Source: an uncultured Pseudomonadota bacterium (GTDB lineage Bacteria > Vulcanimicrobiota > Vulcanimicrobiia > Eremiobacterales > Eremiobacteraceae). From it: a stretch of 64,000 bases of DNA. Of this stretch, positions 1 to 64,000 are shown one piece after another. The first letter of the stretch is position 1. Each line of letters starts with the position of its first letter. The position numbers and the translations under genes are program-made. The notes beneath the pieces are model-generated. The model did not search any database. It was not told the origin of the DNA and saw nothing but the letters and a program-made list of their open reading frames with translations. The DNA lies in the NCBI GenBank assembly GCA_963736005.1, contig CAVTNB010000001.1:1888001-1952000 (forward strand), read 5' to 3'.

Positions 1-664
1 TTCTCCGTTTGCCTACGTGCCCGGTCCAGCTTCGAGTGGAGCTGTGCCGAACACCCAATTCATCGTCCTCGCGCATGTCGGCGTGACTCCAACAAGCCGC
101 GCACTCATAACGGGAAGCTGGGTTGAACTCCAAGGTTATAAGAACAACTTCTGGTGGACCTTGAAGCAGACGTACCAGCCGCTCCAGGCAAATTTGTCAG
201 TCGGCGCCATAGGCGCCAGCTACCAGTTCGGTCCCTCGCTCAATCTCGCGGTGCAAGGCTTGACTCGATTCGGCAACGACCCGACAACGTTGAAAGGATG
301 GACCGACAACAAGGCATTCTGGGGCGTTGTCAATGTGGGTCACACGGCTCAAAAAATCAACAACAACTTCATGGAGCTAGGGTGGATCGGTACTGGCGCG
401 CACTCCGTGCTCAACCCGGAGACGTGGGTCAACGGCACGCCCTTCTACACTTTTTACTATACCGGTCAGGCCAACGACCGTAAGATGGCCTACATCGGGG
501 TGCACCACTGGGTGAGCAATTACATGCGCGTTGGCCTTAACTACCAATATTGGGGGATCAACACGCCACTTCCGTTGTTCTCAGGCACGGGCGTTCCAGC
601 TGGTTCGTACATCATGAACAACGACAACCGCGCGCTCTTTCTGAACACGCTCATGCAATTCTAA
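1..664 (+). CDS. C-terminal part of a probable outer-membrane beta-barrel/porin (5' truncated by window edge)
   Basis: Frame open from base 2; amphipathic aromatic-rich beta-strand pattern; ends ALFLNTLMQF with terminal Phe typical of Bam substrates. Confidence 0.55.
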   Translation, partial: SPFAYVPGPASSGAVPNTQFIVLAHVGVTPTSRALITGSWVELQGYKNNFWWTLKQTYQPLQANLSVGAIGASYQFGPSLNLAVQGLTRFGNDPTTLKGWTDNKAFWGVVNVGHTAQKINNNFMELGWIGTGAHSVLNPETWVNGTPFYTFYYTGQANDRKMAYIGVHHWVSNYMRVGLNYQYWGINTPLPLFSGTGVPAGSYIMNNDNRALFLNTLMQF

Positions 665-53952: not shown

Positions 53953-54393
53953 ATGTCGGCATTTCCCAAGTTCACGGGACAATTCGAACATTCCCTAGAC
54001 GAGAAGGGCCGGTTAACCATTCCTGCCCGCATGCGGGCGCGCCTGGGCGACCATTTCGTGCTGACCATCGCGCCTCCTGAACCCTGCCTTGCCATGTATC
54101 CGGAACTAACCTGGTCGGAGTTCTGCAGCAAACTTGAAAGTGCGCCGCGCAAGGACGCTGCGTATCGTGCGTTCGTGCGGCATCTGTTCGCTCATACCGA
54201 GGAAATCTCACTCGACAGCCAAGGGCGCTTGCTGCTTCCTAGCACCTTGCGCGAGATGGCTGCGATCAAGAGAGACGCGGTCCTGGTTGGCACCCTAACG
54301 CGGGTTGAAATCTGGGCGGCGGAGACATGGCGCTCCATGGCAGCACCACCGGAGAACATGGCGGACCTTATGACCGAGCTTGGGCTCTACTAG
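53953..54393 (+). CDS. mraZ: Transcriptional regulator MraZ
   Basis: FTGQFEHSLDEKGRLTIP, DSQGRLLLP, RVEIW. Confidence 0.96.
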   Translation: MSAFPKFTGQFEHSLDEKGRLTIPARMRARLGDHFVLTIAPPEPCLAMYPELTWSEFCSKLESAPRKDAAYRAFVRHLFAHTEEISLDSQGRLLLPSTLREMAAIKRDAVLVGTLTRVEIWAAETWRSMAAPPENMADLMTELGLY

Positions 54394-55315
54394 CCATGAG
54401 CCGGTCATGCTCGAGGAGTGCTTGACCGTGTTAACATCCGCGGGCGAAGGCGCGCAGCAAAAAGTTTTTGTCGACGCGACGTTTGGCGCCGGAGGTCACG
54501 CAAGCGCATTGCTCGATGCCGTTGCGAAGAGCGTGGTGGTCGCAATCGATGCGGATCCCAAAGCAGTCGATCGAGCGAAACGTCTTGCCCGCAGGTATCC
54601 CGGACGGGTCATTGCGCAACACGCCAATTTCGGCGAACTCGATGCCGCACTCGATGCCGCAGGCGTGCGCAAGGTTGACGGCATTCTCTACGATCTGGGG
54701 CTCTCGTCGTTGCAGTTAGCGCAGCCAGAGCGCGGCTTTTCCTTTAGCGGCGACGAGCCATTGGACATGCGTCTCGATCCCTCATCAGATGTGCCCACCG
54801 CTGCGGATCTTCTCGAGCGCTTACCGCAAAGCGAATTAGAGTTGATCCTGCGGGAATACGGAGACGAACGTTTCGCGCGCTCGATAGCCCGCTCCATCGT
54901 GCGGCGTCGTCCACGCACGAAGATATGGCGTACGAGCGATCTCGTGGCCGCCGTTGTGCGGGCACTCCCTGCCAAGCGAGCGCACCAGCGCATCCATCCT
55001 GCCACTCGGACTTTTCAAGCGCTGCGCATTGCAGTGAATCAAGAATATCGCAATCTCGAGCGCAGTTTGGAGAGCGCAGTCCGTCGGCTAGGTCCGAACG
55101 GACGTGTCGTCGTCATCAGCTTTCATTCCGGCGAGGATCGCATCGTCAAACGGCGCTTCAAAGCGTTCCAAGAGTTGGGTCTCGCGCGCGTCTTGACCCG
55201 CAAGCCGCTACGCCCAAGCGCCGCAGAAATCGCGGCAAATCCGCGCAGCCGCAGCGCGAAACTGCGCGCGATCGCAACAGAAGACACCACAACAGCGAGG
55301 AGCATCACCGCATGA
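54380..55315 (+). CDS. rsmH: 16S rRNA m4C1402 methyltransferase
   Basis: HEPVM, DATFGAGGH, DLGLSS, PLDMR, HPATRTFQALRI, FHSGEDR, NPRSRSAKLR. Confidence 0.96.
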   Translation: MGSTSHEPVMLEECLTVLTSAGEGAQQKVFVDATFGAGGHASALLDAVAKSVVVAIDADPKAVDRAKRLARRYPGRVIAQHANFGELDAALDAAGVRKVDGILYDLGLSSLQLAQPERGFSFSGDEPLDMRLDPSSDVPTAADLLERLPQSELELILREYGDERFARSIARSIVRRRPRTKIWRTSDLVAAVVRALPAKRAHQRIHPATRTFQALRIAVNQEYRNLERSLESAVRRLGPNGRVVVISFHSGEDRIVKRRFKAFQELGLARVLTRKPLRPSAAEIAANPRSRSAKLRAIATEDTTTARSITA

Positions 55316-55746
55316 GTGCCCCAGCATACGCCTACAAGCCGCAGCTCGAACCAACGATCGATCCGCGAGATTCGGATTCGCGTCGGCGCCGGCGGCGCAT
55401 TGTGAAGGCCGCAGATTTTGCCCGCACGCTGACCTGGTGCATTATTCCGCTCGTGCTCGTTCTTCTCTACGTTGGCTTGATGGCAAGTCTCACGTCGCAG
55501 ACCTATCGCCTGTCCCTCGATCAGCGATTGCATGCATCCTTGGTCGAACGCAACAACGCACTCCACAGTCGCGAAGCACAGCTCGAGTCAGTCGAAAGCC
55601 TGCAGGCCGCCGCACGCAAGCTGCACATGAGCGAGCCCAAAAAAATCGCCTTCATTTATTCACCGGCAGCAGCTCAACCAACCCCGCGGCGACTCGCCCT
55701 CTTCGTTCAAATCCTTGGCGTCACGCGCTGGCTTGGCGTCCGGTAG
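55312..55746 (+). CDS. ftsL: FtsL-like cell division protein
   Basis: Position between rsmH and the PBP; single TM then coiled coil, AARKLHM. Confidence 0.7.
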   Translation: MSAPAYAYKPQLEPTIDPRDSDSRRRRRRIVKAADFARTLTWCIIPLVLVLLYVGLMASLTSQTYRLSLDQRLHASLVERNNALHSREAQLESVESLQAAARKLHMSEPKKIAFIYSPAAAQPTPRRLALFVQILGVTRWLGVR

Positions 55747-57580
55747 GCGCCGCACTGCTGCGCGTGGCACCAAGCGCAGCGCGAGGTTAAAAGACCAAGA
55801 GCGCTCTCGCTTGGGGATTCGCTCTTTCGTTGTCTTCTGGGTCTTTTTTGCGTTGAGCGCACTGCTCGTCACGCGCCTTTATATCGTGCAGATACGAGAG
55901 GGCGCGGGTTTGGCGGCGAATGCCAGCGAGGAACAGGAGGTCACCTTCCCGGTCAACCCGCACCGCGGGGACATCGTGGACCGCTTTGGCATCGTCTTCG
56001 CGACAACGCTTCCTTCCTATTATGTGTCTGCCCGGCCCAACGCATTGTCACACCCGGATAGCGAGGCTGCCGAACTGGCACCCATTCTCAGCATCAGTCC
56101 CCTCCAGATCGAACGAGCGATGCGCAGCAAGCAACCGTTTGTCTATCTGGCACGCAACGTGCCAAAAGCAGTCGCCAGTAGAGTAGGAACGCTCAATCTT
56201 GCGGGCGTTGGTGTCGACGAAGAACCGATGGGTCGCCGCGTCGCCCCGCAAGCCGAAGTTGGTTCGACCGTCATTGGTTTCACAGGGGTCGACGATCAGG
56301 GTCTGGCCGGCGTTGAGTATGAATTCAACGGCGAGCTTGCGGGGCGTGAGGGAAGCGTTACCGAGGAGACCGATGCCGCGGGCCGCCCCATTCCGTTTGG
56401 GAAGCGCATCGTGCACCAGGCAGCGTCCGGTGACACGGTTGTCTTGACGATCGATCGAACGCTGCAGTTTGACGCCGACCAGATCTTGCACGCCACGGTG
56501 CAGCGGTATCACGCGCAAGGCGGATCGATCGTGGTCATGCGCGCCCGAACCGGCGAAATTTTGGCGCTTGCGAACGCACCTGATTTCGATCCCAACCACT
56601 ACGACCGCTCCCCCGCAGCTGCGTGGCGAAATCAAGCCGTCACGGATCCGTACGAACCGGGTTCAACGTTCAAGCTCATTACGGCAACCGCAGCGCTGGA
56701 TTCAGGAAAAGTTTCGCTTCAAGACACCTTTCCAGCGCTCAACGAACTACGCATTGGCGGGCGCGTGATCCACAATGCCGACGACGGGCTGATGGCATCC
56801 GGCCATAGTTCGGAAACCGTCGACGACATCGTGACATTTTCGCACAATGTTGGCGCGGCGCAAATTGCTCTACGCATCGGCAAGCAAACGATGTACGATT
56901 ACATTCGGCGCTTCGGCTTTGACGACGCGACAGACATCAACTTGCCCGGTGAGAGCACGGGCATCGTCGGAACTCCCGATGACTGGTGGGGTTCGCGCCT
57001 CGCGACGATAGGTTTCGGACAGGGTGTCTCCGTAACGCCGCTGGCGCTAGCGCGCGCGTATGCGGTTATCGCGAACGGCGGCGAGCTCATGCGTCCACTG
57101 CTGGTGCGATACGTGGTTTCGACCGATGGTCACATTGTTAAAGCGTTCGATCCGATCGTTGTGCGTCGCGTCATGTCGCCGCAAACCGCCGCGAGCTTGC
57201 TGACCATCCTGCGCGATGTCGTGCGGCGCGGCACCGGCAGAGGTTTGTCGCTGCCCGGGTACGCGATCGCGGGCAAGACCGGCACTGCACAAATGGTGAT
57301 CGACGGCAACTACGTCATGGGCGCGTACACCGCTTCCTTTATAGGCATCGTGCCGGCCGACAAACCCCAATATGTCATCCTCGTGAAGATCGATCGTCCG
57401 CAAGGCGCGTACTATGGCAGCATTGTCGCTGGCCCAGCCTTCCGCGCTCTCGCGAGCAAGGTCTTATGGCGAGAAGGCGTGTTGCCACGGCACGCGGCGG
57501 CAGCTCTCGACACATTGCCGAGTCGAGCCGCGGGTTCGGCGGCGGGAGACGCAGCAGGCGAGACGAGAAATCAACTCTGA
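55715..57580 (+). CDS. ftsI: Class B penicillin-binding protein (FtsI)
   Basis: RGDIVDR, YEPGSTFK (SxxK), SHN (SxN), KTGT; start uncertain. Confidence 0.92.
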   Translation: MASRAGLASGRRRTAARGTKRSARLKDQERSRLGIRSFVVFWVFFALSALLVTRLYIVQIREGAGLAANASEEQEVTFPVNPHRGDIVDRFGIVFATTLPSYYVSARPNALSHPDSEAAELAPILSISPLQIERAMRSKQPFVYLARNVPKAVASRVGTLNLAGVGVDEEPMGRRVAPQAEVGSTVIGFTGVDDQGLAGVEYEFNGELAGREGSVTEETDAAGRPIPFGKRIVHQAASGDTVVLTIDRTLQFDADQILHATVQRYHAQGGSIVVMRARTGEILALANAPDFDPNHYDRSPAAAWRNQAVTDPYEPGSTFKLITATAALDSGKVSLQDTFPALNELRIGGRVIHNADDGLMASGHSSETVDDIVTFSHNVGAAQIALRIGKQTMYDYIRRFGFDDATDINLPGESTGIVGTPDDWWGSRLATIGFGQGVSVTPLALARAYAVIANGGELMRPLLVRYVVSTDGHIVKAFDPIVVRRVMSPQTAASLLTILRDVVRRGTGRGLSLPGYAIAGKTGTAQMVIDGNYVMGAYTASFIGIVPADKPQYVILVKIDRPQGAYYGSIVAGPAFRALASKVLWREGVLPRHAAAALDTLPSRAAGSAAGDAAGETRNQL

Positions 57581-59082
57581 TGCAGCCTGTCATAGCGCAA
57601 CCCCTCGAACGCCTCTTCGAGGGGATGCCGGTAACGATCAAGGGAGATGCGAGGCTGACGATCACCTCGCTTGCGACTGATTCGCGCCAGGTGCGGCCTG
57701 GCGCGCTGTTTTTCTGCTTGCGCGGCGAGCGCGCCGACGGCCACGCGTTTGCGCAGGCTGCGCTCGACGCTGGCGCTCTCGGCATCGTCGCCGACCACGA
57801 TCTTTGCGCAGCGAGCGCGACGCGCGTCATCGTGACAGACCCACTCGCCGCGCTCTCCAAAGTTGCAGCGCGGTTTTATCGCGATCCAAGTTCCAGCTTG
57901 ACCATGGTTGGCGTCACGGGAACGAATGGGAAGACCACGACAACGTATTTTATTGAAGCGATCGCGCGCGCAGCAGGCGAGAGCTTTGGGGTCATTGGAA
58001 CGCTCGGCGCGCGGCTGGGTCAGACGCCGGTTGAGGACCTTGCCAACACGACCCCGTTCGCGCATGATGTCCAGCGGCTGTTGGCAGGTTTCCGAGATGC
58101 CGGCGCGCGGGGTGCGGTTCTTGAAGTCTCAAGTCATGCTTTGGATTTGCACCGAGTCGACGACGTCAAGTTCGACGTTGCCGTTCTGACGAATCTGACC
58201 CAGGATCACCTGGACTTTCATCGCAGCTTCGATGATTATCGCACAGCCAAGCGTAAGCTCTTCGCCGCCTCGATGGGTAAAGGCGGCGCTCGTCCAGTCG
58301 CCGTTCTCAACCTCGATGACGCCGAGGGGCGCGCACTCGCCCGCAGTTTGCAATCCGAGCGCCAGGGGCGCTGCCTGACCTACGGCGTCAACAACCGCGA
58401 TGCATTGATCGATGCGACCGATGTAACGATGGGCCCATCTAGTTCGCGCTTTTGGGTGCGCGGTCTGCGACCGGCTCCCTTTACTATCCGCCTGCCAGGC
58501 GCATTCAACGTTGCAAATGCGGTCTGCGCGCTTGCAACCGCGACGGCTCTCGATATCGACGTCGAAGCAATCGCCGAAGGACTCGAGTCGCTTGAAGAGG
58601 TGCCCGGCCGGATGATTGCGATTCCGGCGGGCGAGGTCGCCGTCTACATTGACTACGCACACACGCCCGACGGCATGGAGCAGATCCTGCGCGCCGCTCG
58701 CACGCTCACGAAGGGAAGGATTGTGTGCGTTTTCGGCTGCGGAGGAAATCGGGATGCGTCCAAGCGGCCTGCCATGGGCCGCATCGCGCAAGAGCTTGCG
58801 GATTATGTCATACTGACCACCGATAATCCGCGTCACGAAGAGCCTAGAGCAATCATCGACGACATCCTGGCTGGGATGGACGCTGGTGCAGGCCGTCACG
58901 AGGTGGTCGTCGATCGCACCGCCGCGATCGCGCGCGCGGTTGAGCTTGCTCGTGCCAGTGATTCTGTGGTCATCGCGGGCAAGGGTCACGAGAACTATCA
59001 AATCTTTGGTGACGAACGTCGACCATTTTCGGATGCCATCGCAGCGCGCGCTGCGATCGCGAAGAAGGAAGCAGTGCGATGA
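57580..59082 (+). CDS. murE: UDP-MurNAc-tripeptide synthetase (meso-DAP type)
   Basis: DSR, GVTGTNGKTT, EVSSH, DYAHTPD, FGCGG, DNPR, AGKGHE. Confidence 0.96.
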   Translation: MQPVIAQPLERLFEGMPVTIKGDARLTITSLATDSRQVRPGALFFCLRGERADGHAFAQAALDAGALGIVADHDLCAASATRVIVTDPLAALSKVAARFYRDPSSSLTMVGVTGTNGKTTTTYFIEAIARAAGESFGVIGTLGARLGQTPVEDLANTTPFAHDVQRLLAGFRDAGARGAVLEVSSHALDLHRVDDVKFDVAVLTNLTQDHLDFHRSFDDYRTAKRKLFAASMGKGGARPVAVLNLDDAEGRALARSLQSERQGRCLTYGVNNRDALIDATDVTMGPSSSRFWVRGLRPAPFTIRLPGAFNVANAVCALATATALDIDVEAIAEGLESLEEVPGRMIAIPAGEVAVYIDYAHTPDGMEQILRAARTLTKGRIVCVFGCGGNRDASKRPAMGRIAQELADYVILTTDNPRHEEPRAIIDDILAGMDAGAGRHEVVVDRTAAIARAVELARASDSVVIAGKGHENYQIFGDERRPFSDAIAARAAIAKKEAVR

Positions 59083-60473
59083 GTCTTTCCTTCGCACGCT
59101 TTCTGGAAAAAAGCGGCGGGCGAGTACTCGCAGATGCCGCCTCGCTGCCGGCTCAGTTTCGACCAAGCACCGACTCGCGCACGCTCGCGTCCGGGGAAAC
59201 CTTCGTGTGCCTGCGCGGTCCCAATTTCGACGGCCACGACTACATCGCGCAAGCGATCTCCCGCGGAGCAGCCGCGATCCTTATCGACGACGACAGCAAG
59301 GTATCCCGCCCCGAGCGCGTCCCCGTCGTGCGCGTCGGCGACGTGAAGGAAGCCTATCTCATTGGTGCGACGACTGCGCGCCGTGCGTTTGCCGGTCAGG
59401 TCATCGCGATCACGGGGAGCAACGGCAAGACGACGACCAAGGAATTTGCCGCCCAGATCATCGGCGCGCAGCGGCGCGTCCTCGCGACGCCGCAAAATGA
59501 AAACAACGAGCTGGGCGTCGCCAAATTGTGCTACCAGCTCAACTCCGAGGCAGAGGTTGCGGTGGTTGAATTTGGCGCTCGCCATCCCGGCGAAATTGCG
59601 CAACTCGTCGACATAGCCGCGCCCGACATTGGCGTCCTCACAAACATTGCCGAAGCGCATCTTGAGTTTTTTAGCGATCAAGCAGAGCTCGCGCGAACGA
59701 AATTTGCTATTTTTTCCAAAGGAGCTCGCGCCGTTTGCAATGCTGCCGACGTGTGGTCGCGGATGCTGGCGGCGGAAGCAGGAGTGGATGGCAAGGCGTT
59801 GTGGGTCAGGCTGGTCGGCGATCCAGTCATGTCAGGCATCATGCTCGAGGCGGGCTTGCCCAAGGACGGCCAACTGGCCGTGACCTTTGGTGCATCACAC
59901 GCCTTTGCGGGGTGGCGTCTCGTTGGCGAGCATCACCTACGCGATGCTTTGCAAGCCGCCGGCGCAGCGATTCTCGCGGGCGTCGCATTTGAAGATGCGC
60001 TTGCGCAACTGCAGGGCTTGCGTTTGCCGCCCGGTCGCTTCGAGCTCCACCACGCGCCATCGGGGGCGACGATCGTCTACGATGCTTACAATGCAAGCCC
60101 GAGCTCGATGATGCACGCGTTACGGTCCTTCGCCGAGTTGCCGGCGACGCGGCGTATCGCAGTGCTTGGGAGCATGGCCGAACTCGGCGCACAGGCGGAG
60201 CGGCATCACGAGGCGGTCGGTGCGGCAGCGGTGGACGCGGGCATTGGCATCCTCTATGTCGGCGGACCATTCGCCGCCGCGCTGGCGGGCGGTGCGAAGC
60301 GCGCAGGCATGTCTGCCGAGAACGTGATCGCTTTTGCAAGCAATGACGAAATCGCTGACCGCTTGCGCCGCACGCTTGCCCCAGGCGATTGCGTGTTGCT
60401 CAAAGGGTCGCGCGTGCAAAAGATGGAGGAGATCTTGGCTCGCGTGCTCGGATCGGGAGTCCTCGCCTCGTGA
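59079..60473 (+). CDS. murF: UDP-MurNAc-pentapeptide synthetase
   Basis: TGSNGKTTTKE, NNELG, DAYNASP, LGSMAELG, LKGSR. Confidence 0.96.
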   Translation: MSLSFARFLEKSGGRVLADAASLPAQFRPSTDSRTLASGETFVCLRGPNFDGHDYIAQAISRGAAAILIDDDSKVSRPERVPVVRVGDVKEAYLIGATTARRAFAGQVIAITGSNGKTTTKEFAAQIIGAQRRVLATPQNENNELGVAKLCYQLNSEAEVAVVEFGARHPGEIAQLVDIAAPDIGVLTNIAEAHLEFFSDQAELARTKFAIFSKGARAVCNAADVWSRMLAAEAGVDGKALWVRLVGDPVMSGIMLEAGLPKDGQLAVTFGASHAFAGWRLVGEHHLRDALQAAGAAILAGVAFEDALAQLQGLRLPPGRFELHHAPSGATIVYDAYNASPSSMMHALRSFAELPATRRIAVLGSMAELGAQAERHHEAVGAAAVDAGIGILYVGGPFAAALAGGAKRAGMSAENVIAFASNDEIADRLRRTLAPGDCVLLKGSRVQKMEEILARVLGSGVLAS

Positions 60474-61186
60474 GCCCCACTTCGTTTGTGCTCGACATCG
60501 CGCTCTTGCCGCCGCGCATCGTCGCGCTGCCGGTGCGCACGCCGCTCGTCAAACCTGGAGATGATCTGCCGGCCATGCTGTGCGAGTGCCTGCGTGGCCT
60601 GCTTCGAGGCGACGACATCATCTGCGTTTCCGAAACAGCGGTGGCGATCTCGCAGGGTCGATCGATTCCGGCCGAGGCGATCCGGCCCTCGCGACTCGCG
60701 CGGCTCCTCGCTAGGCGCGCCGGTTCGTACGCGACAGTCAGCCAGCCCGAGTCGATGCAACTTGTTTTGGAGAGTGCGGGGACGCTGCGGGTGTTGGCGG
60801 CGGCAGCCGCAGGCGCTGCCGGGCGGCTCGTTGGGCGACGAGGCGATTTCTACCGCCTCTTGGGATCGGCCGTGGCGGAGATCGATGGTTACACAGGTAC
60901 CATGCCGCCCTACGAACGTCACATCGTGCTGGGTCCCCGCAATCCGCACATCGTTGCCCAAACCATCGCACAAGTCTGCGCCGCTCATGCCTGCATCGTC
61001 GACGCAAACGATTTGGGCAAGGCGGAAGTGCTCGGCGCAAGCGCAGGAGTCCGAACTGAAATCGTGCGCCGCTGTCTGTTGTTGAATCCAGCGGGCAACG
61101 CGGATGAGCAGACACCCGTGGTCGTTTTGAAATATCGACCAGAGCCTGGGTCGCCTGCTCGCTCTCCTTTGCTCGAAACAGCGTGA
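60470..61186 (+). CDS. CofE / F420-0:L-glutamate ligase-like protein inside the dcw cluster
   Basis: PVRTPLVKPGDD, VSETAVAISQGR, IDG, VDANDLG, NPAGNADEQTPVV resemble the F420_ligase fold family; 4-bp GTGA overlaps with murF and mraY. Confidence 0.75.
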   Translation: MSPTSFVLDIALLPPRIVALPVRTPLVKPGDDLPAMLCECLRGLLRGDDIICVSETAVAISQGRSIPAEAIRPSRLARLLARRAGSYATVSQPESMQLVLESAGTLRVLAAAAAGAAGRLVGRRGDFYRLLGSAVAEIDGYTGTMPPYERHIVLGPRNPHIVAQTIAQVCAAHACIVDANDLGKAEVLGASAGVRTEIVRRCLLLNPAGNADEQTPVVVLKYRPEPGSPARSPLLETA

Positions 61187-62181
61187 TCTTGGCCTCGCTG
61201 CTGGACGGATTGTTCGCCTTCGTACCCGTGCGTGCACTCGCAGTGATCTCGGGTTTGATCGTCGCGATCGCTGTTATTCCGTGGCTCATCAGCGCTCAGA
61301 AACGCCTGCATCTCGGACAGCAAGTCTACGATGATGCTCCGAAGACGCACGCGACAAAACAAGGAACCCCAACCATGGGTGGGGTTGCGTTCGTCTTGGC
61401 GGCGTTGGTTGGATGGATGCTGGGAGGTTTTCACAACTCGCTGCCGCTCATCGCGCTCGTGGTCGCTGCCGGGGCCATAGGGTTCATCGATGACCTGCTC
61501 ATCGTGCGCGGCCGACGCGCCCTTGGTTTGCGTGCGCGCGAAAAGTTTTCCCTGATCGCGGTTGCGGCGATCGCCTACGTCTTTTGGGTGTACAACACAG
61601 GCTTGGGTGGGCCCGAGCAGACGTGGTTTGGCGGCACCGCTTCGCTGCCACTGTGGCTGTGGAGTGGTCTGGCAGTGCTTGCCATCGTGGGTTCCGCGAA
61701 TGCGGTGAATCTTACCGACGGCCTTGATGGCTTGGCAGCTGGAGCGACCATTCCAACGCTGATTGGGCTCCAGCTCACCGCACAATATCTGGGCTTGCCG
61801 GGCGGGTCGACCACAGCAGATGCCGTGATTGGCGCGTTGCTTGGGTTCCTTTGGTTCAACCGACACCCCGCTCGCATTTTTATGGGCGATACCGGCTCGC
61901 TCGCCTTGGGAGCGCTTATCGCCGGCGTCGCGATCGAGTCCCATGCCCTGCTGCTGCTCCCTCTCTTTGGCATCGTCTTCGTTCTCGAAGCGCTCTCAGT
62001 CATTGCACAAGTCACAAGCTACAAGACAACAAGCCGTCGCATTTTCAAGATGAGTCCCTTGCATCACCACTTTGAACTCTCTGGTTGGCGCGAAACGGCA
62101 GTGACCTCAACGTTCGTCGCGTTTGCGGTGGTCGCCGCCGCTGCGACTTGGCTCACGTGGTGGTCGAGTAACAAGCTGTAG
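61183..62181 (+). CDS. mraY: Phospho-MurNAc-pentapeptide transferase
   Basis: KQGTPTMGG, GFIDD, NAVNLTDGLDGL, FMGDTGS, MSPLHHHFE. Confidence 0.97.
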   Translation: MILASLLDGLFAFVPVRALAVISGLIVAIAVIPWLISAQKRLHLGQQVYDDAPKTHATKQGTPTMGGVAFVLAALVGWMLGGFHNSLPLIALVVAAGAIGFIDDLLIVRGRRALGLRAREKFSLIAVAAIAYVFWVYNTGLGGPEQTWFGGTASLPLWLWSGLAVLAIVGSANAVNLTDGLDGLAAGATIPTLIGLQLTAQYLGLPGGSTTADAVIGALLGFLWFNRHPARIFMGDTGSLALGALIAGVAIESHALLLLPLFGIVFVLEALSVIAQVTSYKTTSRRIFKMSPLHHHFELSGWRETAVTSTFVAFAVVAAAATWLTWWSSNKL

Positions 62182-62210
62182 CAGCGGACCTTTTGGTTCG
62201 CCCGCGAATC
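62178..62210 (+). repeat. Degenerate class D REP (its TAG is the mraY stop)
   Basis: gtagcagcggaccttttggttcgc. Confidence 0.65.
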
Positions 62211-62227
62211 ACATGTCGAAAAGAAGA

Positions 62228-63610
62228 ATGTACAACAAGAACGATTCGATCATCATTATCGGCCTCGGGCGTAGCGGACTTGCGACCGCGCGCGTGCTTC
62301 GCAAACGCGGCGTGTCGGTCGTAGCCTATGACGATAAACCACCTCACTTGCTCGGTTCGGAAAACGCCGCGCTCCTCAAAATCGGCGTTCCGCTCATCGG
62401 AGCCGGCGAGCTCGACGCGGCGGCGAAAACAGCAACCTGTGCCGTGATCTCGCCCGGCGTACCCCAGACCAACCGTGCGGTGCGGCAGTTGCAAGATGCA
62501 GGGGTGACGGTCATTTCAGAAATCGAGCTTGCCTATCAGCTGGCGTCTAGCCCGATCATCGCGGTCACCGGGAGCAAGGGGAAGTCCACGACCACCGCAC
62601 TCATCGGTCACATCCTCACGACGGGCGGGATCGCCAATCGCGTGGGCGGCAACATCGGCAATCCGCTCGTGCTCGAGACCGTTTCGGCTCCGGCGGACGC
62701 TTGGGTCGTGGCAGAGGTATCGAGTTTCCAGCTTGAGGGCATTCGCACGTTTGCGCCGCGCATCAGCGTTCTCCTGAACATTTCTCCAGATCACCTCGAT
62801 CGCTATCCTTCGATGGAAGAATACGCGGAAGCGAAGTTTCGCATCTTCGCAAATCAAAAAACGAAAGATTTCTTCATCGGCAACGCCGATGACGAGTATT
62901 GTGCGTGGCTGCGCAGCGGAGCGGGCAGAAGCATTCCGGCTCGCGCACTCTGGTTTGGCATGGAACCAACCGACCGTGGCCTCTCGATGACGATGTTAGG
63001 CGACGCGATCGTGCTTCGCGACAAGCGCCGCGAGGTACCCGTCGTTCACGCGCACGATCTGAAGATTCGCGGGAAACACAATGTCGCCAACGCCATGGCG
63101 GCAGCCCTGGCTGCTTTGAGCGCGGGGGTCAAGCTGGAATTCGTGCGCCAAGCCTTATCGACGTTCGAGCCACTGCCGCACAGGCTCACGCCCGTGCATC
63201 GCGCTTTTGGGGTCACGTGGATTGACGATAGCAAGGCAACCAACCCAGCGTCTGCGACGGCGGCTCTCGAGGCCATGGAAGCGCCAGTCATCCTCATCGC
63301 AGGGGGCAAGAGCAAGAAGACCGATTTCACAAATTTTGCCGCGGCGGCATCTCGCATCGCCAAACGGGTCATCCTCATCGGTGAAGCCGCTCAAGAAATT
63401 GGCGAGCTCGTCGAAGGACCGCCGGTCTGCTACGCTCGTGATTTGCAAACTGCGGTGATCGATGCCGCGGCTGCTGCACGCAAAGGCGATGTCGTCCTCC
63501 TGTCGCCCGCGTGTTCATCCTTCGATATGTTTGAAAGCGCCGAGCAACGCGGCGAACACTTCGCCAAGCTCGCTCGCGAATACGGCAATCATAACGTGGC
63601 CGCGTCGTGA
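62228..63610 (+). CDS. murD: UDP-MurNAc-L-Ala:D-Glu ligase
   Basis: GLGRSG, SPGV, TGSKGKSTT, EVSSFQL, DHLDRY, DDSKATN, LSPACSSFD. Confidence 0.96.
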   Translation: MYNKNDSIIIIGLGRSGLATARVLRKRGVSVVAYDDKPPHLLGSENAALLKIGVPLIGAGELDAAAKTATCAVISPGVPQTNRAVRQLQDAGVTVISEIELAYQLASSPIIAVTGSKGKSTTTALIGHILTTGGIANRVGGNIGNPLVLETVSAPADAWVVAEVSSFQLEGIRTFAPRISVLLNISPDHLDRYPSMEEYAEAKFRIFANQKTKDFFIGNADDEYCAWLRSGAGRSIPARALWFGMEPTDRGLSMTMLGDAIVLRDKRREVPVVHAHDLKIRGKHNVANAMAAALAALSAGVKLEFVRQALSTFEPLPHRLTPVHRAFGVTWIDDSKATNPASATAALEAMEAPVILIAGGKSKKTDFTNFAAAASRIAKRVILIGEAAQEIGELVEGPPVCYARDLQTAVIDAAAAARKGDVVLLSPACSSFDMFESAEQRGEHFAKLAREYGNHNVAAS

Positions 63611-64000
63611 TCGATCGCCGGGCTCCCGATGCCTTGGTGCTGATCGTGACTGGGCTGCTGACTGCCATGGGCATCGTCATGGTCTTTTCTGCATCGTCTG
63701 CAGTGGCGTACATGCAATTTCACGACGCGGCCTACTATCTCAAGCGAGAGCTGCTGTGGGCTGCCGTCGGCGTTCTGGCGCTCGTCGTGGGCCTGCGCTT
63801 TGACTACGCAAAGCTGCGGCCGGCAGCCCCCTGGATTTTTGCGATCGCAATCGTGCTGCTTGTCGCAGTCTTGATTCCCAAGTTCGGCTTTATCGAGGGC
63901 GGCGCGCGGCGCTGGCTCTCGCTCGGCCCGTTCACGTTTGAACCCTCGGAGTTTGCCAAGCTCGCCCTCGTGCTTTTCTTGGCTGGCTTGTTTTCTGCTC
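63607..64000 (+). CDS. ftsW: FtsW (3' truncated by window edge)
   Basis: GTG at 63607; GIVMVFSAS, GARRWL, FEPSEFAK. Confidence 0.92.
   Translation, partial: MIDRRAPDALVLIVTGLLTAMGIVMVFSASSAVAYMQFHDAAYYLKRELLWAAVGVLALVVGLRFDYAKLRPAAPWIFAIAIVLLVAVLIPKFGFIEGGARRWLSLGPFTFEPSEFAKLALVLFLAGLFSA

Follow-up and report, generated by a model that had tools for sequence, protein, structure and literature searches.

A CofE-fold gene between murF and mraY of an Eremiobacteraceae dcw cluster: a candidate peptidoglycan-precursor amide ligase

We analysed a 64,000-nucleotide stretch of DNA from an uncultured bacterium of the Eremiobacteraceae (assembly GCA_963736005.1, contig CAVTNB010000001.1, positions 1,888,001 to 1,952,000; hereafter the window), in which a division and cell wall (dcw) cluster carries an additional gene, here called X, at the junction of murF and mraY. 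Domain searches with Pfam gave the gene order mraZ-rsmH-ftsI-murE-murF-X-mraY-murD-ftsW. The features of the locus, all on the + strand, are the following.

60470..61186, + strand: X, CofE-fold ligase-like protein of 238 residues (open reading frame and translation, PF01996, AlphaFold2 model, Foldseek, VIA)
60455..60459, + strand: GGGAG, Shine-Dalgarno-like, within the 3′ end of murF (direct reading of the sequence)
59079..60473, + strand: murF, UDP-MurNAc-tripeptide:D-Ala-D-Ala ligase (Mur_ligase, Mur_ligase_M and Mur_ligase_C domains, Pfam)
61183..62181, + strand: mraY, phospho-MurNAc-pentapeptide translocase (Glycos_transf_4, 121 bits; MraY_sig1)
57466..59082, + strand: murE, with DNPR at residue 453 (Pfam and sequence)
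55715..57580, + strand: ftsI-type class B penicillin-binding protein (Transpeptidase and PBP_dimer domains)
62123..63610, + strand: murD (MurD-like_N, Mur_ligase_M and Mur_ligase_C domains)
63607..64000, + strand: ftsW, 5′ part, continuing beyond the window (Pfam)
53953..55315, + strand: mraZ and rsmH, head of the dcw cluster (MraZ and MraW methylase domains)

The first-pass annotation of this DNA had described X as a 238-residue open reading frame overlapping both of its neighbours by 4 bp, and coordinates and sequence agree with that description: the murF stop and the X GTG (60470) share the tetranucleotide GTGA, as do the X TGA (61184-61186) and the mraY GTG (61183). Pfam bore out the naming of murF and mraY as the flanking genes, and the DNPR motif that had been read in murE is present. 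The Shine-Dalgarno-like GGGAG lies 10 nt from the X GTG. An alternative TTG start at 60389 would give a frame of 265 residues; the GTG start is favoured because homologues of 238 residues align from residues 1-5. G+C fractions are 0.642 for X, 0.630 for murF and 0.597 for mraY. Farther along, murD in its longest frame, from TTG 62123, shares 59 nt with the end of mraY (62123-62181), and the true murD start may lie downstream of this TTG.

Beyond the window, the host genome continues after ftsW with murG, murC, murB and ddl. All four Mur ligases and Ddl are thus present, and X is therefore no stand-in for MurC, a role that had earlier been offered as the less likely of its possible functions. 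Past ddl the host cluster (L054 6384-8291) carries genes for a zinc-ribbon Tim44-like protein and for a CBS-domain M50 peptidase, where ftsQ-ftsA-ftsZ would be usual but do not follow.

The family of X was assigned from sequence profiles and from a predicted structure. X matched the Pfam family PF01996 with 56.9 bits against a cut-off of 25, residues 22-104 aligning to profile positions 2-82 of 218. This was its sole Pfam hit; no Mur_ligase_M or Mur_ligase_C domain was found, hence X, which may act in a similar way, lies outside the Mur ligase superfamily (MurC-F, Mpl, MurT). A sequence search of the Protein Data Bank (PDB) reached CofE weakly (E about 4e-4, residues 16-92). The AlphaFold2 model of X, built from 36 family members, had a pLDDT of 91.1 and a pTM of 0.88. 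When this model was submitted to Foldseek, the best entry was CofE chain 2phn_A at E 4.2e-9 (TM-score 0.61, 251 columns), the next entry standing at E 1.5; VIA, run against 48,161 chains, aligned 185 residues of the same chain (2PHN) at Z 15.4 and a root-mean-square deviation of 3.1, and the next chain reached Z 4.2. The CofE-like assignment, made in the first pass from motif recall, is thereby upheld by both the profile match and the model. As modelled, X is a full-length CofE-fold protein with a diverged sequence, and it shares over nearly its whole length the fold of CofE and of FbiB's N-terminal domain (PF01996, TIGR01916; PDB 2PHN, 2G9I, 7ULD).

The divergence is considerable. X missed the NCBIfam equivalogs for CofE, scoring 37.7 against a cut-off of 180.65 for TIGR01916, and 43.8 against 274 and 13.2 against 304 in tests that also covered NF009809 and NF009810. 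For comparison, 12 proteins of the phylum, drawn from classes other than the window's and each passing the TIGR01916 cut-off, served as true CofE. An hhalign comparison of 36 X proteins with these 12 gave a probability of 98.3% over X residues 25-192, and the features common to the two groups are the PGDD turn, the GD ahead of strand 2, (E/Q)GR, G125, P156 and the Asp of IVD178. Within the X family, the 36-sequence alignment shows T24, D49, R64, G125, F127, Y128, G132, D139, P147, P156, D178, N180, N206, P207, G209, T215 and P216 to be invariant, and E213 and Q214 are also invariant or nearly so in an alignment of 11 sequences. Motifs of the family kept over its full length in both alignments are SE..VAI.QGR, GRRG.FY, IDG..GT.PP, IVDANDLG and NP.G(N/Q)..EQTP. 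Asp150 and Thr151 of CofE, which we take to be its metal ligands, fall on D178 and A179 of X in the alignment. A quick tree (midpoint root, no bootstrap) put true CofE on a separate long branch with an SH-aLRT value of 99; X proteins of the window's class formed one clade (94) beside all remaining members of the X family (96). We conclude that X represents a distinct, so far undescribed, peptidoglycan-linked branch of the CofE-fold ligases.

Because of its PF01996 match and its fold, and because public records are labelled coenzyme F420-0:L-glutamate ligase, X might be taken for a genuine CofE that makes the glutamate tail of F420. We consider this reading close to untenable. According to the available text of PMC10861534, CofE contacts the F420 ring through F92, G153-C155 and R234 of the partner subunit. 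G153-C155 (offset by 2 from the chain numbering) are aligned with D181-L182-G183 of X, and the structural alignment stops at chain residue 226, so that R234 is left without an aligned partner. X stands far below the equivalog cut-offs given above, with two of them missed by 37.7 to 180.65 and 43.8 to 274. Apart from sequence, X differs from CofE in its dcw home and in the company it keeps: no F420 genes were found in the 64,000-nt window by profile search, as the first pass had stated, and none reached its cut-off in the host genome, which is 84% complete. There, CofD scored 22.8 against 257 and CofC 24.4 against 105; two CofH-like hits, at 296 and 288, remained below the 374 set for FO synthase, and X is the single PF01996 locus. 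A PF01933 match of 378.9 bits in the host genome reflects a broader family, a model that also rings in Escherichia coli and Bacillus subtilis. The two CofH-like radical-SAM genes are adjacent (G000:C1:1354574-1357384; L004, L005) and are probably enzymes of the futalosine pathway to menaquinone rather than FO synthase.

The same picture was obtained across the phylum, for which 201 genomes, two of them unpublished (G128 and G178), were sampled. The window's class comprises families f1-f3 with 132 genomes. Of the 201 genomes, 38 have CofD (E <= 1e-20) and 39 a true CofE, and every one of these belongs to family f6 or to f18-f21; neither gene was found in any of the 132 genomes of the window's class (0/132 each), whereas X was present in 131 of them. 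The F420-capable genomes of other classes have a true CofE beside CofD, plus a separate X-type paralogue (e.g. G058, G046, G108, G086, G082, G078, G100). Co-occurrence with cof genes, which had been proposed as a check, thus supports the independence of X from F420, and the public label wrongly suggests F420 metabolism where no pathway was found.

There is precedent for the re-use of a CofE homologue outside F420 synthesis. According to the available text of PMC1971073, Chlamydia, which has no cof genes, possesses in CT611 (COG1478) a protein able to complement the loss of folC in an E. coli mutant. X could by this precedent be a FolC2-type enzyme that glutamylates dihydropteroate or folates. 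The Chlamydia protein, however, fills in for an absent folC and is encoded among folate genes, whereas the host of X has a canonical folC (356.2 bits against 162.65) and X lies among mur genes; its fusion partners, described below, are peptidoglycan enzymes. We regard a folate function as very unlikely.

X and its surroundings are strongly conserved. X was found in 198 of the 201 phylum genomes (196 of 199 when the unpublished G128 and G178 are left aside). The order murF-X-mraY-murD occurred in 30 of the 30 loci returned by the phylum search, all from families f1-f3 and including the window's own locus; one of them, L023, comes from G128, and the count without it is 29/29. The synteny survey called for in the first pass accordingly found murF-X-mraY in every locus of that search. 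Public sequences gave the same arrangement. Among the best 80 of 513 relatives found on genome contigs with an 11-sequence alignment, all of them Eremiobacterota-like, murF lay directly upstream in 71 of 74 assessable loci under a strict rule, the other 3 having a partial or shorter murF match, and mraY lay downstream in 75 of the 76 loci assessed, the remaining one having a later mraY match. Six of these murF-X-mraY contigs (L068, L070, L075, L087, L088, L106; 57-80% identity) are labelled Casimicrobiaceae, Proteobacteria, Acidiferrales or Rhodospirillales and are probably mis-binned or mislabelled contigs of metagenome-assembled genomes. The arrangement murF-X-mraY was also seen in metagenome-assembled genomes labelled Vulcanimicrobiaceae (L082).

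X and MurF are joined outright in some members. All four genomes of genus g4 (L013, L015, L016, L022) encode MurF and X in a single open frame with an Ala-, Glu- and Pro-rich linker of some 50-60 residues between them, and a metagenome protein of 736 residues, P0122, has the same MurF-X architecture. Long frames at two other loci, L027 and L037, proved to be out-of-frame read-through and not MurF-X fusions. The median identity to the window protein in 14 loci of other families of the class was 58.7% for X, compared with 41.3% for MurF, 49.9% for MraY and 49.4% for MurD; on these sequence comparisons X is under stronger constraint than its neighbours. Prediction of a MurF + X complex gave an ipSAE of 0.00 in both runs, which, as folded controls were not included, speaks neither for nor against binding. 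A search for sequencing runs listed no RNA run; it returned ten DNA metagenome runs, one holding at least half of the sampled words.

When 1.84 billion representatives were searched, 735 relatives of X came up at E <= 0.001 and 93 at E <= 1e-30. Domain fusions were counted by Pfam scan in 33 of the 150 representatives listed. An Amidase_3 domain (MurNAc-L-Ala amidase) precedes the X domain in 5 of the 33, and an AsnB-type glutamine amidotransferase (GATase) in 6. The Asn_synthase part is weak in three of these six, and P0261 has the glutaminase domain only. P0261, P0234 and P0238 look like glutaminases feeding ammonia to a CofE-like domain, by analogy with MurT/GatD. TPR repeats precede the X domain in 4 of the 33 (in P0213 the X domain was mapped by phmmer only), and a polysaccharide deacetylase (peptidoglycan deacetylase) of 821 residues accounts for 1, its X domain lying at 247-467 by phmmer and Pfam showing the deacetylase only. 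Fusions to an M20 peptidase, a GNAT domain and an adenylate kinase were seen once each (1/33). Two representatives are joined to a MraY-like part, which may be gene-calling artefacts.

Many other members of the family are about 400 residues long with the X domain at the C terminus, which is the form present in the other classes of the phylum. In a model of this form (pLDDT 88.1), residues 2-30 make up a transmembrane helix and residues 35-168 a beta-sandwich, which a flexible linker joins to the CofE-like domain. The sandwich resembled generic folds only; its best match, at Z 9.3, was the luminal domain of TMEM106B, and many others scored Z 7-8. Basic residues come after the transmembrane helix, so that by the positive-inside rule the rest of the protein is likely to be cytoplasmic. 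When the host genome was searched by tblastn with four versions of the anchor domain, nothing significant was found (best E 0.065).

The Amidase_3 fusions raise the possibility that X is a ligase for recycling, re-attaching peptides as Mpl does, or for another envelope molecule such as a secondary wall polymer. A parallel for the latter is qimC of Streptococcus pyogenes, a CofE-like gene in the qim wall-modification operon whose role is called unclear by the authors in the available text of PMC12803152. Like X, qimC is a CofE-fold gene in a cell-surface modification operon of a bacterium not known for F420; its operon consists of sugar and teichoic-acid-like genes, as opposed to the mur genes around X, and the two are likened here by description only. 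In the window's class, X is wedged between the last cytoplasmic and the first membrane step of precursor synthesis and can be fused to MurF, and no recycling or polymer genes stand beside it in the window. Both versions of this explanation are in our view unlikely.

Homologues of X outside the phylum, whose taxonomy was taken from cluster names, include a close group in the Negativicutes: Sporomusa, Methylomusa, Pelosinus, Thermosinus, Propionispora, Lucifera and Massilibacillus, together with Selenomonas sputigena, Mitsuokella, Anaerovibrio, Megasphaera, Dialister pneumosintes, Veillonella magna and V. montpellierensis. Identity within the X family among the named Negativicutes genera is 62-90%. 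Less closely related members carry the labels Limnochordales, Natranaerofaba, Oscillospiraceae and Caldisericia. In the ESM Atlas the Sporomusa protein retrieved only generic clusters named for F420 ligase. With a Negativicutes alignment, 80 metagenome loci (L151-L230) were found; many are near-identical gut contigs, so the counts that follow are not independent. A gene of about 183 codons lies directly before X in 79 of the 80 loci, and in 76 of the 76 that have at least 600 bp of room. Its product starts with a transmembrane helix, continues as a beta-sandwich and belongs to no Pfam family. This pairing of an anchor gene with X would place X at the membrane, the site of lipid-linked precursors. 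Thus the X family exists as a membrane-anchored enzyme, split or fused, and in the window's class is tied instead to MurF and MraY.

The Negativicutes operon (e.g. L155 5074-7660) consists of genes for a 4HBT thioesterase, glutamate racemase, the anchor protein and X, followed by rph, rdgB and a metallophosphoesterase gene. A glutamate-racemase-family gene (murI) lies upstream of X in 47 of the 61 loci with room for it, and among the 80 loci a 4HBT thioesterase gene was found in 65, rdgB in 55, rph in 33 and an S-adenosylmethionine (AdoMet)-decarboxylase-family gene in 24. In these 24 the decarboxylase-family gene stands two or three genes downstream.

We think it on balance probable that X is a nucleoside triphosphate-dependent ligase joining an amine to one of the free carboxyls of the peptidoglycan precursor; the mechanism is proposed by analogy with CofE. 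As described in the available text of PMC10861534, guanosine triphosphate held on two divalent metals of CofE activates a carboxylate to an acyl phosphate, which is attacked by a bound amine, L-Glu, a chemistry that the authors liken to that of MurD. X and CofE are alike in the N-terminal PGDD...GD...(E/Q)GR region and in the Asp of the D(S/T) motif, and their acyl-phosphate amide-ligase chemistry is presumably the same. X, a presumed cytoplasmic enzyme, would thus form an acyl phosphate by phosphorylating a free stem-peptide carboxylate, acting on UDP-MurNAc-pentapeptide from MurF or on lipid I/II from MraY and MurG. That the acyl substrate is a precursor carboxylate is suggested by the position between murF and mraY, the fusion to MurF, the membrane-anchored relatives and the fusion partners acting on the stem peptide or on amide bonds. 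The stem L-Ala-D-iGlu-mDAP-D-Ala-D-Ala (D-iGlu, D-isoglutamate; mDAP, meso-diaminopimelate, or meso-DAP) offers three carboxyls: D-iGlu alpha, meso-DAP epsilon and the terminal D-Ala. The D-iGlu alpha-carboxyl would be the most likely acceptor site and the meso-DAP epsilon-carboxyl the alternative. Since no MurT was found (no MurT_C match in the 84%-complete host genome), no known enzyme of the host occupies the D-iGlu alpha-carboxyl. The acyl phosphate could be attacked by ammonia, an amino acid or a polyamine, and for some members of the family the glutaminase fusions point to ammonia. Catalysis, nucleotide, acceptor carboxyl and amine are all inferred. As a side result, the PF02784 family of Orn/DAP/Arg decarboxylases, which includes LysA, had no match in the host despite its meso-DAP-type murE, and in a genome of this completeness the gene may be unassembled.

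Enzymes that carry out a comparable job are known. MurT/GatD is the lipid II D-isoglutamate amidotransferase, and AsnB/LtsA-type enzymes are meso-DAP amidotransferases. In both, as in the reaction proposed for X, a carboxyl of the stem peptide is activated with the help of a nucleotide and then turned into an amide, and the pairing of MurT with GatD is mirrored by the fusions of X to glutaminase and AsnB domains. The folds are unrelated, as MurT has the Mur ligase domain that X lacks. Taken as a whole, the interpretation first put forward for this locus stands as to the CofE family and fold, the independence from F420 and the link to peptidoglycan-precursor genes; it falls as to the replacement of MurC.

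Several observations weigh against a precursor ligase. The sequence match to PF01996 covers only the first third of X. The CofE motif TxKxxSKAEGR (TxKVVSKAEGR) reads SETAVAISQGR in X, with both lysines replaced, and the CofE segment D(S/T)xGRxWR (D(S/T)FGRxWR) reads DANDLG; with the lysines lost and GRxWR replaced, the nucleotide binding or the chemistry of X may differ from that of CofE or be lost. In other classes of the phylum the X domain was beside mur genes in 0 of 12 loci, and the dcw placement is a feature of one class. Outside the phylum, some members of the family are labelled as belonging to Firmicute groups that are single-membraned, such as the Oscillospiraceae, and murI-rph-rdgB is a general Firmicute cluster, so that the adjacency to murI may be partly inherited context.

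The motif changes also leave room for X to assist MurF or MraY in a non-catalytic or regulatory way: as a module that binds nucleotide or precursor and has lost ligase chemistry, it would scaffold or gate the hand-over of UDP-MurNAc-pentapeptide to MraY. Such a role would suit the fusion or translational coupling of X to MurF and MraY and, elsewhere, its tethering to a membrane anchor or to TPR repeats. The residues D49, R64, D139, D178, N180, N206 and T215, and also E213 and Q214, are nevertheless invariant or nearly so in very distant members, a pattern typical of active sites; X exceeds its enzymatic neighbours in conservation, and the glutaminase and AsnB fusions suggest delivery of an amine to a catalytic site. 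A purely structural role therefore appears improbable to us, and a precursor amide ligase is the reading that we prefer.

A narrower form of the ligase reading, which we hold only tentatively, is that the X family is the long-missing peptidoglycan:polyamine ligase, amidating the D-isoglutamate alpha-carboxyl of the precursor with putrescine, cadaverine or spermidine and so creating the tether for OmpM-type SLH porins in double-membraned Terrabacteria (Negativicutes, Eremiobacterota). According to the available texts of PMC10628300, PMC5020339 and PMC12826042, the D-Glu alpha-carboxyl of Negativicutes peptidoglycan bears cadaverine or putrescine, and the SLH domains of OmpM bind peptidoglycan only when it is so modified; ompM mutants described in PMC10628300 show detachment of the outer membrane. 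These texts name no ligase gene for the peptidoglycan polyamines in the portions available, and the literature search returned none. The attachment of polyamines to the D-Glu alpha-carboxyl in Selenomonas and Veillonella resembles the reaction proposed for X, in which a stem-peptide carboxyl would likewise be amidated at the level of the precursor. Conservation of the X family extends to Veillonella, Dialister, Megasphaera, Selenomonas, Mitsuokella, Anaerovibrio, Sporomusa and related genera, and its link to the polyamine activity is one of co-occurrence. In papers of the 1980s that activity is said to have been membrane-bound, ATP-dependent and directed at a lipid intermediate.

The beginning of the window contains a gene that bears on this proposal.

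1..664, + strand: OmpM-like porin of 577 residues, 3′ part in the window (whole gene L149 1282-3015 = C1:1886931-1888664; SLH domain, 32.9 bits)

Besides a signal peptide, the porin has one SLH domain and a long region at its C terminus, and it is the one SLH protein found in the host genome. By manual count its SLH residues F-A-Y...G...TRYE are in register with W34, Y36, G58 and TRYE 63-66 of Veillonella OmpM1, as given in the available text of PMC10628300; the same text offers Y36 and Y65 of OmpM1 as candidate polyamine contacts typical of double-membraned Firmicutes. The host genome also has adjacent genes for speE and AdoMet decarboxylase. PF01996 was silent in the control genomes of Thermus, Deinococcus, Synechococcus and Thermotoga; SLH domains of Deinococcus-Thermus and Cyanobacteria bind pyruvylated polymers (available text of PMC10628300). 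Two further points count for the polyamine reading: X is conserved in the Negativicutes, paired with the anchor gene beside murI, and its present host is one in which MurT was not found. An outer membrane and a thin layer of peptidoglycan are described for the first member of the phylum to be cultured, with no report of its wall chemistry (PMC9758169). The support that the polyamine idea gains from all this is circumstantial.

Three points argue in the other direction. The host has a gene of the pyruvyl-transferase family (109.8 bits), a family that also rings in E. coli, so that this match does not identify CsaB. The fusions of X to glutaminases suggest that ammonia is the amine in some members, and the X family occurs also in groups that are single-membraned.

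If polyamine attachment is indeed the function of the family, a question that dates from the 1980s would become directly testable in Veillonella genetics, and the answer would bear on the tethering of the outer membrane in early double-membraned bacteria. The X family is a core gene of the Negativicutes, whose peptidoglycan polyamines are needed for that tethering. Peptidoglycan precursor synthesis is among the best-charted of bacterial pathways, and the murF-mraY junction is normally uninterrupted. The presence there of a phylum-wide gene that surpasses its essential neighbours in conservation and is sometimes fused to murF implies an unrecognised stem-peptide step or modification in a widespread soil phylum.

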